Positions 1 to 62,880 of a stretch of 63,256 nt of DNA are shown here, in pieces (positions within the stretch are counted from its first letter, which is position 1; every line of letters begins with the position of its first letter). The stretch is from a virus. The DNA is taken from IMG/VR virus record IMGVR_UViG_3300045988_135371, positions 1 to 63,256 of that record; one strand, given 5' to 3'. A program made the translations under genes and the position numbers. The notes under the pieces were generated by a model, which worked only from the letters and a program-made list of their open reading frames with translations, was not told where the DNA came from and searched no databases.

Positions 1-47
1 GAGCGGAAAACGGGACTCGAACCCGCGACCCTCAGCTTGGGAAGCTG
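1..47. repeat. Left copy of the att core (displaced 3' fragment of tRNA-Gly)
   Basis: Identical to 63210-63256. The reverse complement reads anticodon arm, variable loop, T arm and acceptor 3' strand. The sequence after pos 47 does not continue as tRNA (A27-A43 mismatch). Confidence 0.9.
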
Positions 48-348: not shown

Positions 349-813
349 TTATTTTCTTCCATGGTCATATATATCACCGAATTTATTCTCTATGAAAAAT
401 ATATAGAAAATCTTACCTCTTTGAAGTCCAACGAAAGACCTATTGTCCCCTGAAGCACGAAACGCATGAAGGTCGACTTCCCTTGTTACAAAAGAAGGCA
501 ACTTATCTTTCGGCTTAATGTCATTGTACGGAATAGGCTCCATGCCATATGAATGTCTATGTGACAACCGTATTCCATTCCATCCAAGCTCACACAGTTT
601 TTGAAGTCTTAATATAAAGTTAAGAAGGAACGAATGGTCTTTACAATCTTTTATATACTCATCCGATAGGTATTTAAAAGAGAACAGAGGATGGTCTATT
701 TCGGATAAATCACTTATTTCCCCTACGCTGACCTTATTGGAGTTTATAATACTCTGTATAAAAGAAAGCCCATCATCACTTTTCTTTTTCTTGCTTTTAC
801 CCTTTCCACTCAT
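349..813 (-). CDS. Unassigned 154-aa protein, putative toxin partner of the upstream Panacea-domain antitoxin
   Basis: 4-bp ATGA overlap with the DUF4065 gene. The lysine-rich N-terminus and a C-terminal LHAFRASGDNRSFVGLQRGKIFYIFFIENKFGDIYDH segment resemble a RelE/ParE-type strand-turn-strand core (weak, by eye). Confidence 0.45.
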   Translation of the reverse strand: MSGKGKSKKKKSDDGLSFIQSIINSNKVSVGEISDLSEIDHPLFSFKYLSDEYIKDCKDHSFLLNFILRLQKLCELGWNGIRLSHRHSYGMEPIPYNDIKPKDKLPSFVTREVDLHAFRASGDNRSFVGLQRGKIFYIFFIENKFGDIYDHGRK

Positions 814-1259
814 TTCTTCAACCGAGTTCTAAAAAATGTCTTAATTTTACTCTTTGGAATCACATTTCCTTCCCCGGTCTTAGTGTTTTTCCAAGGAGCT
901 TCACTGTGTGTCATATTCATAAGGCCAAGAGCGGAATATACTCCATACACCTTAAATACTTCATTGAATAGTGCTTCTTCTTCCTTGCTCTTAAATTCAA
1001 ATTCAAATTCGGATTCCAGGCGAATACCATTTTTACCGTTGCTTTTATATTCGTCATATACAGAAGGAACAACCGGACCATACATCCATGCTTCAATTTC
1101 CTCATCAAAGAGAGGTTCGCCGAAATATGCCAAATGAAATCCCTGTTGGTAGTATAACATCTTTTGGAGTTTCATGTTTGTCATAAACTCTTCTCCGTAA
1201 CTAACTTGTTCTGCTTTCTTTATAAGAAGCTTTGCTATATCTGATGCCTTGTATGCCAT
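810..1259 (-). CDS. Panacea / DUF4065 (SocA/GepA-like) antitoxin-domain protein
   Basis: NMKLQKMLYYQQGFHLAYFGEPLFDEEIEAWMYGPVVPSVYDEYK matches the DUF4065 signature. Confidence 0.85.
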   Translation of the reverse strand: MAYKASDIAKLLIKKAEQVSYGEEFMTNMKLQKMLYYQQGFHLAYFGEPLFDEEIEAWMYGPVVPSVYDEYKSNGKNGIRLESEFEFEFKSKEEEALFNEVFKVYGVYSALGLMNMTHSEAPWKNTKTGEGNVIPKSKIKTFFRTRLKK

Positions 1260-1271
1260 AATACATTTTCA

Positions 1272-1427
1272 TTACATTAAATATGAATATACGGGTATTC
1301 TTCTTTTATCAAGTTCCTCTTTGGAAATATCAGACAATACAGACTTCTTCCCTGAATTGGATTTATTCAAATCAGAGATGTTCTTTTTAGAAGAACGAGG
1401 TTCTTGTTTTAATCTTATATTACCCAT
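1272..1427 (-). CDS. Possible 51-aa basic small protein upstream of the Panacea gene
   Basis: ATG-started ORF below the track cutoff (MGNIRLKQEPRSSKKN...), ending 12 nt before the PanA-like start. No family recognised. Confidence 0.2.
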   Translation of the reverse strand: MGNIRLKQEPRSSKKNISDLNKSNSGKKSVLSDISKEELDKRRIPVYSYLM

Positions 1428-1613: not shown

Positions 1614-1895
1614 TCACTTCTTTTTCCCAAATAGTTCAGAGTGGCTTCCAAGTCTAAGGATTTCAATAACATCGCTCCCCTCGTCAAACCATATAAGGAG
1701 AAAATCTCCCTCGATATGGCACTCCATGCAATCCTTGTACTCACCAATCAGGACATGAGCCTTATATTTCTCCGGAAGTTCTATTTCATTCTCCAACATA
1801 CGAAACACTTCCAGTAACTTGCTCAATTTGGATGGGTTGTTCCGGTATCGCTTAAAATCTTTTTTATACTGTGTTGAATAGTGCAACTGCTTCAT
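1614..1895 (-). CDS. yafQ: YafQ-family (RelE superfamily) type II toxin
   Basis: YSTQYKKDFKR ... LPEKYKAHVLIGEYKDCMECHIEGDFLLIW ... LGSHSELFG follows the YafQ pattern. Confidence 0.85.
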   Translation of the reverse strand: MKQLHYSTQYKKDFKRYRNNPSKLSKLLEVFRMLENEIELPEKYKAHVLIGEYKDCMECHIEGDFLLIWFDEGSDVIEILRLGSHSELFGKKK

Positions 1896-2147
1896 CTACT
1901 CACAAGATTTTATAAAGGCTTCCATGCTACTGGTATCAATAACCCCGGCATATTTACCGGAACGCGCCTCGTTTATGGCTGCAACCGTCTCTTCATTAGG
2001 TTCTGAATACATTGCATCCATTAAGGTGCTTTCTACAAAATTATTAAGGCTTCTGTTTGCCTTCTTAGCATGTTCCTGCAAGATTTGTAATAAATCCTCA
2101 CGCAAGCGGAACGAAGTTTGTTTTCTTACTACTGCTTCCATTTTCAT
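1896..2147 (-). CDS. Ribbon-helix-helix antitoxin (DinJ/RelB-like) cognate to YafQ
   Basis: Abuts the toxin start. N-terminal RHH-like segment KQTSFRLREDLLQILQEHAKKANRSLNNFVE. Confidence 0.7.
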   Translation of the reverse strand: MKMEAVVRKQTSFRLREDLLQILQEHAKKANRSLNNFVESTLMDAMYSEPNEETVAAINEARSGKYAGVIDTSSMEAFIKSCE

Positions 2148-2202: not shown

Positions 2203-2451
2203 TCATTCCGCCTTTATTTTTATACTTTTTCCACAGTTCGGGCACGTGATAGAGGCTCCATCGCTTTTGGGCTTTTCAAATAGTTCAGTTACCGAGCAAC
2301 CTATGGCATCCGCAATCTTGTTTAATGTTTCAACTGTCGGGTTACCATTAACCATATTGGATAAATTTACTCTATTTATTCCCATCTTATCGGCAAGTTC
2401 TGTTATAGTCATACCTTTTCCTTTGATAACTTCTTTGATTCTTAAATTCAT
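2203..2451 (-). CDS. XRE-family helix-turn-helix regulator with C-terminal CPNC motif
   Basis: MNLRIKEVIKGKGMTITELADKMGINRVNLSNMVNGNPTVETLNKIADAIGCSVTELF. The track start is TTG, so it was moved to the in-frame ATG at 2451. Confidence 0.8.
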   Translation of the reverse strand: MNLRIKEVIKGKGMTITELADKMGINRVNLSNMVNGNPTVETLNKIADAIGCSVTELFEKPKSDGASITCPNCGKSIKIKAE

Positions 2452-2509
2452 AATGTAATGTTTTGATTTACGATACAAATATACAAAATTTATTTATTGT
2501 AATGATATT

Positions 2510-3201: not shown

Positions 3202-3457
3202 GAATATCAATTATTCATTGTTCATAAGAGGGGCACATTTGCACCTATATTTTAATAGGAAAAACATAACTCTTAAACATTACTTTTTGAGAATTATTGC
3301 TATATTTGCATTGCATTGGGTTGTTCTTATGGAAATTAGAATTAATCAGAGAATTAAGATATAGAAAGCTGTGTAGGTCACAACCCCCTGCATGGCTTTC
3401 GCCTTTTTATCTCCGTATAAAGAAATACGGTACATCCTCGAACGAAAAGACTTTATT

Positions 3458-4153
3458 ATGGACAGCATTCAAATTTTTAAGAATGAGGCTTTCGGCGAAG
3501 TTAGAGTAGCCGGAACAAGTGAAAAACCTTTATTTTGCCTTGCAGATGTTTGCAAATCTTTAGGGTTGCGAGTAGATGCAGTGCAATCAAGATTATCAGA
3601 TGCCCCCATTCGGATTGGGGTCACTGATTCTCTTGGAAGAGAACAGCAAATGAATTTCGTTAACGAAAAGAGCTTGTACAAAGTTATCATGCGTTCAGAC
3701 AAGCCGCAAGCGGAACCTTTTCAAGACTGGGTATGCGGTGAAATCCTTCCTTCAATCCGCAAACACGGCATATACGCCACTGATAATGTTATAGACCAAA
3801 TACTGAATAATCCGGATTTCGGTATTGAACTTCTCACTAAGTTAAAAGAAGAACGGTCGGCACGCATCGAAGCGGAAAAGCAAGTAGCTGTGCTTACTCA
3901 TGTTAATAAGACCTATACATGCACGGAAGTAGCTAAAGAGTTGGGGCTTAAATCGGCAATTGAACTCAATAACCGTTTAAAAGAACTTGGTGTACAGTAT
4001 AAAGTTAATCAGACATGGGTTCCATACACCAAGTACGCAACTCTTGGTTGGTTTGATATAAAGCAAGAGGTTGCCGACAACGGTCATATTATCTACCATA
4101 GAAAGATTACTGGAATTGGCAGACAAGGCATAATCAACCTTATTAATTATTAG
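3458..4153 (+). CDS. Phage antirepressor, Bro-N domain plus KilAC/ANT-like C-terminal domain
   Basis: MDSIQIFKNEAFGEVRV...LFCLADVCKSLG...NEKSLYKVIMRSDKPQAEPFQDWVCGEILPSIRKHGIY is a clear Bro-N signature. The start was chosen at the domain boundary. Confidence 0.85.
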   Translation: MDSIQIFKNEAFGEVRVAGTSEKPLFCLADVCKSLGLRVDAVQSRLSDAPIRIGVTDSLGREQQMNFVNEKSLYKVIMRSDKPQAEPFQDWVCGEILPSIRKHGIYATDNVIDQILNNPDFGIELLTKLKEERSARIEAEKQVAVLTHVNKTYTCTEVAKELGLKSAIELNNRLKELGVQYKVNQTWVPYTKYATLGWFDIKQEVADNGHIIYHRKITGIGRQGIINLINY

Positions 4154-61651: not shown

Positions 61652-62860
61652 TTATAAATTATTAGTGATATTCACATAATCAATAACCTTACGATTGGCT
61701 TCGTCCACCTTCCGCATATCGAATCGGATATAGATGTCGGTCGTAGTACTGTTCGCCCAGCTATGCCCAAGTGCATGGGCTATTACTTCCTTTGGAATAT
61801 CAAGTTCCGCCGCTATTGTAGCCCAAGTATGGCGGCTCCAGTATGAGGACAAATCAGGGAATAGGGGATTTCTGCTCTTTTTCCCGCCCAATCCTTTCCT
61901 CTCTGTCTCTCCAATCTGTTTTAACCCTATTCCCATACGATGCAGGAAATCCTTGTAATTTCCGTATTCGTCCATTATATTAAGAAGATAATCCTTCCCT
62001 TTGTATTTCTCGATTATAGCCTGCGCTTCCGGTTCCACTTTTATACTGTATAATTTCCCCGTCTTAACCCTTTTATATTCAAAACGGCCATTTACCAATG
62101 CGGAATGTTTTGCGTTGAACAAATCGGCTGCATTTACCCCTATAAGGTAAAACATGAGCATGAACATATCCCTATATCTAATCTGGTATTCCTCACATGG
62201 ATAATCTCTCAATAACCTAAGTTGCTCTGCTGTAAGACTACGTTTCCGGGTTTCCTCTTTCTTTATTGAAAATCTTCTGAATGGATACAATGTTGTGTAC
62301 TCCTCATCAATGGCGTAGTTGAATACACTACGTATGTTCCGTAAATGAATAGCGTAGGCATTAACCTTCATCGTCTTTGCCATCCACGCTTCAAAGTTTT
62401 CCAGCCATGATTTATCCATGCTCTCAAAAGTACAATGACTATCGTATTCCTCAATCTTGTTTCTTGTGGTTGCATATATAGACTTAGTCCCCTGATTGGT
62501 TTTCTTGGAAACGAATTCATCAAGATAATAGAGAAACGTTTTTTGATTTTCAACCTTGCTACTTATAGCGTCCTCTATCAACTTCTTCAACGTTTTGTCT
62601 GTAGTTGATTTCAACTTTCCTTGTTGCTCTAAAGTAAATATTACCATTTCCGCCTTATTGATTATTTCACGAGCGACTATATTTCTCGGCTTGTAATTCC
62701 GTGCACGTGCGGAATATTCGTTCCCGTTCCATTCTGTTTCCAATGCGCTTAACTGCGTGGCTATCACCATTCGTTTGTTATGGGACACATTCAACTTTAT
62801 AGGATAAGTACCATCATTTTTTTGCCTTCTTTTGTCAAGGAAGAATTTAACTGTTGCCAT
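61652..62860 (-). CDS. int: Tyrosine integrase (Bacteroidetes IntDOT-like architecture)
   Basis: N-terminal arm-binding-type MATVKFFLDKRRQKNDGTYPIKL. Catalytic WSRHTWAT, LGHS...TTDIYI. Adjacent to att. The track start is TTG, so ATG 62860 is used. Confidence 0.9.
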   Translation of the reverse strand: MATVKFFLDKRRQKNDGTYPIKLNVSHNKRMVIATQLSALETEWNGNEYSARARNYKPRNIVAREIINKAEMVIFTLEQQGKLKSTTDKTLKKLIEDAISSKVENQKTFLYYLDEFVSKKTNQGTKSIYATTRNKIEEYDSHCTFESMDKSWLENFEAWMAKTMKVNAYAIHLRNIRSVFNYAIDEEYTTLYPFRRFSIKKEETRKRSLTAEQLRLLRDYPCEEYQIRYRDMFMLMFYLIGVNAADLFNAKHSALVNGRFEYKRVKTGKLYSIKVEPEAQAIIEKYKGKDYLLNIMDEYGNYKDFLHRMGIGLKQIGETERKGLGGKKSRNPLFPDLSSYWSRHTWATIAAELDIPKEVIAHALGHSWANSTTTDIYIRFDMRKVDEANRKVIDYVNITNNL

Positions 62861-62880
62861 ATAAACATAAATTTTAGTTT

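Follow-up and report, generated by a model that had tools for sequence, protein, structure and literature searches.

The 154-aa protein encoded beside a Panacea gene at one end of a Bacteroidales prophage falls within PanT cluster T1 as defined by Kurata et al. (2022), to which it is tied by three independent links. Together the two genes probably constitute a PanAT type II toxin-antitoxin (TA) module, in which a standalone PanA accompanies a T1 protein that would be a divergent endoribonuclease of the RelE fold, and which is carried by the prophage as a moron. The window, by which is meant the whole stretch of DNA that was analyzed, is 63,256 nt in length. A sequence-only reading of this DNA had put the partner forward as possibly a new toxin family, save if it were to fall into a PanT family already described; it does fall into one, and the suggestion of novelty is withdrawn. 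It is worth mentioning that a protein with no match in Pfam, NCBIfam, PADLOC or the PDB can nonetheless belong to a family that is catalogued only in a supplementary table.

Gene organization and prophage context

The putative antitoxin gene is panA (810..1259, minus strand), whose 149-aa product is a standalone Panacea (DUF4065) protein lacking any accessory domain at its N-terminus. It is followed by panT (349..813, minus strand), coding for the 154-aa T1 member, the putative toxin with a predicted RelE/ParE-like fold. The two genes are coupled by an ATGA stop/start overlap (810..813, minus strand), which was read directly from the sequence: the TGA stop codon of panA overlaps the ATG of panT by 4 bp and the junction reads ...AAGAAATGAGTGGA..., with the triplets ...AAG AAA TGA closing panA and ATG AGT... 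opening panT. A basic 51-aa ORF (1272..1427, minus strand) lies 12 nt upstream of panA. The sequence-only reading had reported these three minus-strand ORFs and the 4-bp overlap, and its coordinates for all of them were confirmed.

A 47-bp att direct repeat, corresponding to the 3′ end of a tRNA on the minus strand, occupies positions 1..47 and is repeated exactly at 63210-63256, where chance would be expected to provide no such copy. No complete tRNA was found in the window by ARAGORN. The far end of the window carries the integrase (61652-62899) as well as small terminase, portal and capsid genes. As the att repeats bound the window and phage genes are present, it represents a whole prophage of 63 kb. 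The att core shows 96% identity over ~50 nt to a site in Bacteroides phage BS-TP2. The panA-panT pair sits ~300 bp inside the integrase-distal att repeat, and the earlier placement of the module just inside an att site is thus borne out by the repeat at both ends; its naming as attL is not, however, since by the lambda convention the integrase-distal site is attR, which is a matter of naming only.

Directly upstream of panA-panT is a second TA pair, formed by a YafQ-family toxin (1614-1895, minus strand; PF15738, E=2e-28) and the RHH/RelB-like antitoxin with which it pairs (1896-2147, minus strand), so that two TA cassettes are stacked at this end of the prophage. An exact TAnnTTTG box, the Bacteroides-type promoter consensus, is found at 2180 before this second pair. 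Beyond it lies a gene for a 91-aa XRE-type HTH protein (2203-2478, minus strand), a candidate prophage regulator, with a C-terminal CxxC...zinc-ribbon-like tail (weak Zn_ribbon matches, residues 62-88) and a TAnnTTTG box of its own at 2483, and then a Bro-N/ANT antirepressor gene (3392-4153) on the strand opposite to panA-panT.

Between the stop codon of the YafQ-family gene and panA no exact TAnnTTTG box is present, the nearest on the same strand being that at 2180. Scans for sigma-70 promoters, terminators and inverted repeats gave nothing above background in the window, and no operator. Unlike the window, the relatives L073, L078 and L079 have TATCTTTG at 20-30 nt upstream of panA. We infer that panA and panT are co-transcribed in the window.

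The 51-aa ORF has no family match in Pfam, NCBIfam or PHROG. Its C-terminal SKEELDKRRIPVYSYLM resembles TSKELLDRRIDVYPYMI of a 53-55-aa ORF occupying the same position in loci L074-L077 (3325-3492), which represent a second phage lineage, the two having in common the motif S-K-E-L-x-D-[KR]-R-I-x-V-Y-x-Y; the T1 proteins of the window and of L074-L077 are only 62% identical. None of the 72 loci of the genome scan described below has the motif upstream of PanA, nor do the closer relatives L073 and L078-L082. The ORF, which the sequence-only reading had listed with the module, does exist, but it is not part of a conserved module and was rejected as a third component, since neither the 72 genome loci nor close relatives have it. 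It is perhaps a genuine small phage gene, unannotated and occurring in a sub-lineage.

The PanA protein

The identification of 810-1259 as a Panacea gene was upheld, its product scoring 81.3 bits against the Pfam family SocA_Panacea (PF13274; gathering score 25.7, E=1.3e-22) over residues 31-124, with no additional Pfam domain present. It also matches phrog_1281 (2e-46). Against the NCBIfam family SocA_antitoxin (NF047745) it reaches 71.7 bits, and as the equivalog cutoff of that family is 190, the protein is not a SocA orthologue. No PADLOC match was obtained for either PanA or the 154-aa partner. The PanA of the window has a pI of 6.8, the median of the PanA family being 5.0. The partner is basic, with a pI of 9.15 in the window and a family median of 9.29, and it is more basic than its PanA in 60 of 62 pairs.

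Membership in PanT cluster T1

The survey of Kurata et al. (2022) (PNAS 119:e2102212119, PMC8832971) predicted 1,268 PanAT loci, with toxins sorted into 88 clusters. The first link to cluster T1 runs through Flavobacterium hydatis, in which an exact-sequence look-up places the partner homolog WP_035617271.1 next to the PanA protein WP_035617273.1; Dataset S1 (PMC8832971) pairs the latter with a T1 toxin in the order A|T with a gap of 24, a figure that is accounted for by the existence of a 124-aa version of the gene starting 8 codons later. The partner of the window shares 45% identity with WP_035617271.1 (E=5e-37), and its PanA 40% with WP_035617273.1 (E=2e-34). The second link is Spirosoma oryzae (GCF_003002825.1), listed in Dataset S1 (PMC8832971) as T1 with the order A|T and a gap of 5. 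In the locus analyzed from that assembly (L085) the last base of panA is 2495 and the partner begins at 2501, in agreement with both the listed order and the gap. The third link is a phage: a tblastn search of phage genomes with the window partner identified Salmonella phage vB_SemP_Emek (E=3e-5), the matching protein being YP_006560566.1, whose gene follows that of the DUF4065 protein YP_006560565.1, overlapping it by 62 nt, and which is a T1 entry of Dataset S1 with the same gap (PMC8832971).

Cluster T5 was also considered as a home for the family, with Barb4 and Capnocytophaga having T5 entries, but was rejected, as T5 is MazF-like by HHpred and the three links lead to T1. The supplement of NetFlax (PMC10440598) contained none of the accessions that were looked for.

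T1 is apparently the largest catalogued group of Panacea partners. In the available part of Dataset S1 the T1 rows bear no HHpred or nuclease annotation, while SI Table S1 labels the tested T1 members as 'mRNase' (PMC8832971). Three such members were assayed in E. coli (PMC8832971): that of C. cadaveris was toxic and its PanA failed to neutralize it, whereas those of E. coli MOD1 and phage Emek were not toxic. With one member toxic but non-neutralized and two non-toxic, no T1 pair stands validated as a TA system. Both of the non-toxic members are phage- or prophage-borne, as is the copy in the window. In the same source the PanT clusters T14, T28, T58, T59 and T76 are given as RelE/ParE-like by HHpred or CDD, and T5, T6, T8 and T25 as MazF-like (PMC8832971). 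A Panacea antitoxin paired with a toxin of the RelE fold would therefore be no novelty, since other PanT clusters are already RelE/ParE-like.

Conservation of the pair across genomes

A genome scan yielded 72 partner loci distributed over the Bacteroidales, Chitinophagales, Flavobacteriales and Sphingobacteriales. In 70 of these the gene directly preceding the partner, in the same orientation, codes for a homolog of the window PanA (phmmer E 2e-6 to 9e-89), and in both exceptions the partner lies close to a contig end. The upstream PanA is a standalone protein of about 148 aa. With few exceptions the gap between the two genes lies in the range of -11 to +9 bp, with -4 (19 loci), 0 (9 loci) and +3 (7 loci) being the most common values. 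The pairing of PanA with the partner is far beyond chance. The same gene order is found in Chroococcidiopsis, Aerosakkonema and Spirosoma, which extend it to Cyanobacteria and Cytophagia, as well as in Salmonella phage Emek and Pseudomonas phages. The range of T1 thus takes in prophages of gut Bacteroidales, Cyanobacteria and phages of enterobacteria. When compared pairwise over 62 loci, the identities of PanA and those of the partner show only a moderate correlation (Pearson 0.52, Spearman 0.19).

The genes flanking the pair vary by locus and include prophage genes, an integrase neighborhood, glycosyltransferase/epimerase loci and housekeeping genes. As these contexts are unrelated between loci, panA-panT behaves as an autonomous mobile cassette. 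In L078-L080 a pair whose partner is 80% identical to that of the window is found inside a capsule-type glycosyltransferase/epimerase locus, with a ParE-family TA pair ~1.1 kb downstream and the TATCTTTG promoter box just upstream of panA.

Antirepressor-type genes (Bro-N/ANT, pRha/ANT) repeatedly adjoin PanA-T1 cassettes in unrelated phages, these being at 3392-4153 in the window, 2345-3169 in L073, 196-987 and 4565-5667 in L074, and 3757-4336 in L087. In Salmonella phage Emek the neighbors are mnt, arc and ant, the cassette being placed within the immI region. Such recurrent neighbors hint at a favored site for moron insertion.

Two further loci deserve mention. L006 and L013, from MAGs labelled Gastranaerophilales and Pseudoflavonifractor, have pairs that are 52-55% identical to Bacteroidales ones, which points to mis-binned contigs or recent horizontal transfer. 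In Flavobacterium, one cluster at 90% identity mixes T1 proteins of 132 aa with PanA proteins of 148 aa, and is probably an artefact that arose where the two adjacent genes were called as one, by read-through or fusion.

Predicted fold and conserved residues of the partner

Searches of Pfam, NCBIfam, PADLOC and PDB sequences with the partner were all negative, and the earlier impression that it lies outside known families is correct with regard to curated domain libraries. Its sole library match is the unannotated phage family phrog_8366 (4e-20). It has 60 close homologs, all annotated 'hypothetical' and mostly from Bacteroidales, and an exhaustive profile search with it extends to 851 representative clusters (E<=1e-3). 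Pfam searches with 46 diverse members of the family revealed no RelE/ParE-superfamily family at E<=1 and no recurring family of any kind, and PDB profile searches with two alignments of the family returned noise or nothing. With hhalign no signal was obtained between the partner family and the YafQ-like toxin of the window, nor against YoeB, RelE and YafQ of E. coli or HigB of P. vulgaris. Given the lack of an hhalign signal, homology of the partner to RelE/ParE is not demonstrable by sequence.

An AF2 model of the partner, built from a 34-sequence alignment, has a mean pLDDT of 79.6, with confidence of ~90 for residues 41-150 but low for residues 1-40. The model has strands at 43-45, 92-94, 115-119, 126-132 and 135-141 and helices at 51-55 and 60-83, preceded by a lysine-rich N-terminal extension of ~40 aa which is predicted with low confidence. 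Foldseek searches of the PDB, which had been proposed with the sequence-only reading, gave no significant match (best E=0.18, none <=0.001; target-normalized TM 0.45-0.65), although RelE/ParE-superfamily toxins dominate the list, holding ranks 1 to 13 and ~37 of the first 50 places. The superfamily matches named are HigB, YoeB, YafQ, RelE, ParE, HP0892/HP0894 and the Cami1 RelE-like domain, and the alignments are of 100-119 columns, covering the whole of these 84-96-aa toxins. A second AF2 model, that of a family member (P0060) 43% identical to the window protein, has a pLDDT of 79.4 and a pTM of 0.73; its top 19 Foldseek matches all belong to the RelE/ParE superfamily (best E=0.27), and over the two lists such toxins take ~37-41 of the top 50 places. 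Because the alignments behind the two models are largely the same, the second replicates the first only in part. A Foldseek search against BFVD returned nothing informative.

The proposal that the C-terminal strands of the partner are RelE/ParE-like agrees with the model. The likeness is not confined to the C-terminal third, however, as β1, two helices and β2 of the AlphaFold model lie within residues 43-94. The N-terminal 100 aa had been considered unrelated to such toxins, yet the surplus amounts to no more than roughly the first 40 residues, the Foldseek alignments running over 100-119 columns.

In an alignment of 15 sequences spanning Bacteroidota, Cyanobacteria and proteobacterial phages, residues W78, H87, G90, E92, R119 and Y149 of the partner are invariant and H151 is nearly so, while position 142 is acidic in all 15. 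YoeB has the set E46, R65, H83 and Y84, and P. vulgaris HigB the set H54, D90, Y91 and H92. The His/Glu/Arg set of the partner and its Tyr-x-His at the extreme C-terminus resemble, by analogy, these two sets, and a pattern of this kind is typical of catalytic RNase members rather than of ParE. Judging by the predicted structures, the T1 partner most likely has a divergent RelE/ParE-superfamily fold. The conserved His, Glu, Arg, Tyr and His residues, together with the RelE-like model, offer concrete targets for mutagenesis.

Possible function of the cassette

As a type II module, which is the reading favored here as the probable one, PanA and the small basic T1 protein would be produced in a translationally coupled manner. 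The T1 protein would probably act as an endoribonuclease, ribosome-dependent by analogy with YoeB and HigB, with His87, Glu92, Arg119 and the C-terminal Tyr149-x-His151 as candidate catalytic residues. The acidic PanA, which has no accessory domain, would bind and mask the toxin directly by means of its globular Panacea domain. As a moron, the cassette would occupy that end of the Bacteroidales prophage which is distal to the integrase, with the YafQ/RHH pair and the antirepressor for neighbors, and would serve either to stabilize the prophage or to abort or exclude superinfecting phages.

It is possible, though unlikely, that the pair functions primarily in phage defense or superinfection exclusion instead of addiction. 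PanA would in this case sense infection and then set free or switch on the T1 effector, which would be harmless or inactive until triggered. Such a role would suit the position of the cassette in the moron region of a prophage, beside another TA pair and antirepressor genes, and that of its relatives, which in other phages adjoin Bro-N/ANT, pRha or ant genes, including in the Emek immI region. It would also suit the finding that two of the three T1 proteins tested are non-toxic on simple over-expression (PMC8832971), and NetFlax proposes a sensor role for Panacea (PMC10440598). However, neither PanA nor its partner is matched by PADLOC, and many members of the family are found in ordinary chromosomal contexts without phage genes. 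Moreover, defense of this kind is compatible with the biochemistry of the type II module and differs from it mainly in the biological role. In a related and similarly doubtful scenario, T1 would be a latent nuclease of the RelE fold that needs a trigger, PanA a sensor or activator and not a simple inhibitor, and the prophage copy would serve for superinfection exclusion. A latent nuclease would explain both the two non-toxic phage-borne members and the toxic one that was not rescued.

It seems rather improbable that the partner is no toxin at all but a benign phage or cellular accessory protein, for instance a regulated enzyme that has PanA for a partner subunit. The T1 proteins of E. coli MOD1 and phage Emek were indeed 'not toxic' (PMC8832971), T1 pairs stand without validation and no curated toxin family was matched. 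Non-toxicity in a heterologous host is, however, weak negative evidence, and one T1 member is toxic (PMC8832971), while the strict bicistronic pairing, small sizes, charge complementarity, patchy distribution and mobility of the pair are hallmarks of TA systems. Least probable is a protein of RelE/ParE fold that is not an RNase, i.e. a ParE-like gyrase poison or one with another non-RNA target, for although members of this fold are known as RNA cleavers or as gyrase inhibitors (PMC10440598) and the ParE structures 6xrw, 5cw7 and 8c26 occur in both Foldseek lists, ParE ranks below HigB, YoeB, YafQ and RelE in both, and the family has invariant His, Glu and Arg residues and ends right after its last strand with a Tyr-x-His terminus in which H151 is nearly invariant.

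For the type II module, the copy in this abundant gut prophage provides a native system in which the T1 family can be tested.

Comparison with known systems

Like the RelE/ParE mRNases YoeB, HigB, YafQ and RelE, the partner is small and basic, with conserved residues of the acid/base type including a Tyr/His pair at the extreme C-terminus, and has a predicted β-α-α-β-β-β-β topology (TM 0.5-0.65 per target). Unlike them, it shows no detectable sequence or profile similarity to the group, and it has ~40 extra aa at the N-terminus as well as an insertion of ~20 aa (95-113) between β2 and β3. The antitoxins differ also, being putatively a Panacea protein for the partner family as opposed to the RelB, YefM, HigA or DinJ types that accompany the RelE/ParE mRNases. 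The same toxin fold either cleaves RNA or inhibits gyrase (PMC10440598).

With SocAB of Caulobacter crescentus, a type VI TA system, the module has in common the SocA/Panacea domain of the antitoxin. However, the PanA of the window falls far under the SocA equivalog cutoff and the partner bears no sign of SocB. SocA serves ClpXP as an adaptor, while direct binding to the toxin is the mode of action of validated PanAs (PMC8832971), and NetFlax likewise describes standalone Panacea as binding and neutralizing toxins directly (PMC10440598).

The closest system is PanAT T1 itself, which is without a published fold or mechanism. As in that group, a standalone Panacea gene comes first and a small 'hypothetical' partner follows immediately downstream, the proteins of the window are homologous to the pairs of F. 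hydatis, S. oryzae and Salmonella phage Emek, and the spread across phyla is the same, taking in Bacteroidetes, Cyanobacteria and phages. There is no categorical difference between the two, the Bacteroidales prophage copy being 30-45% identical to the listed T1 members.
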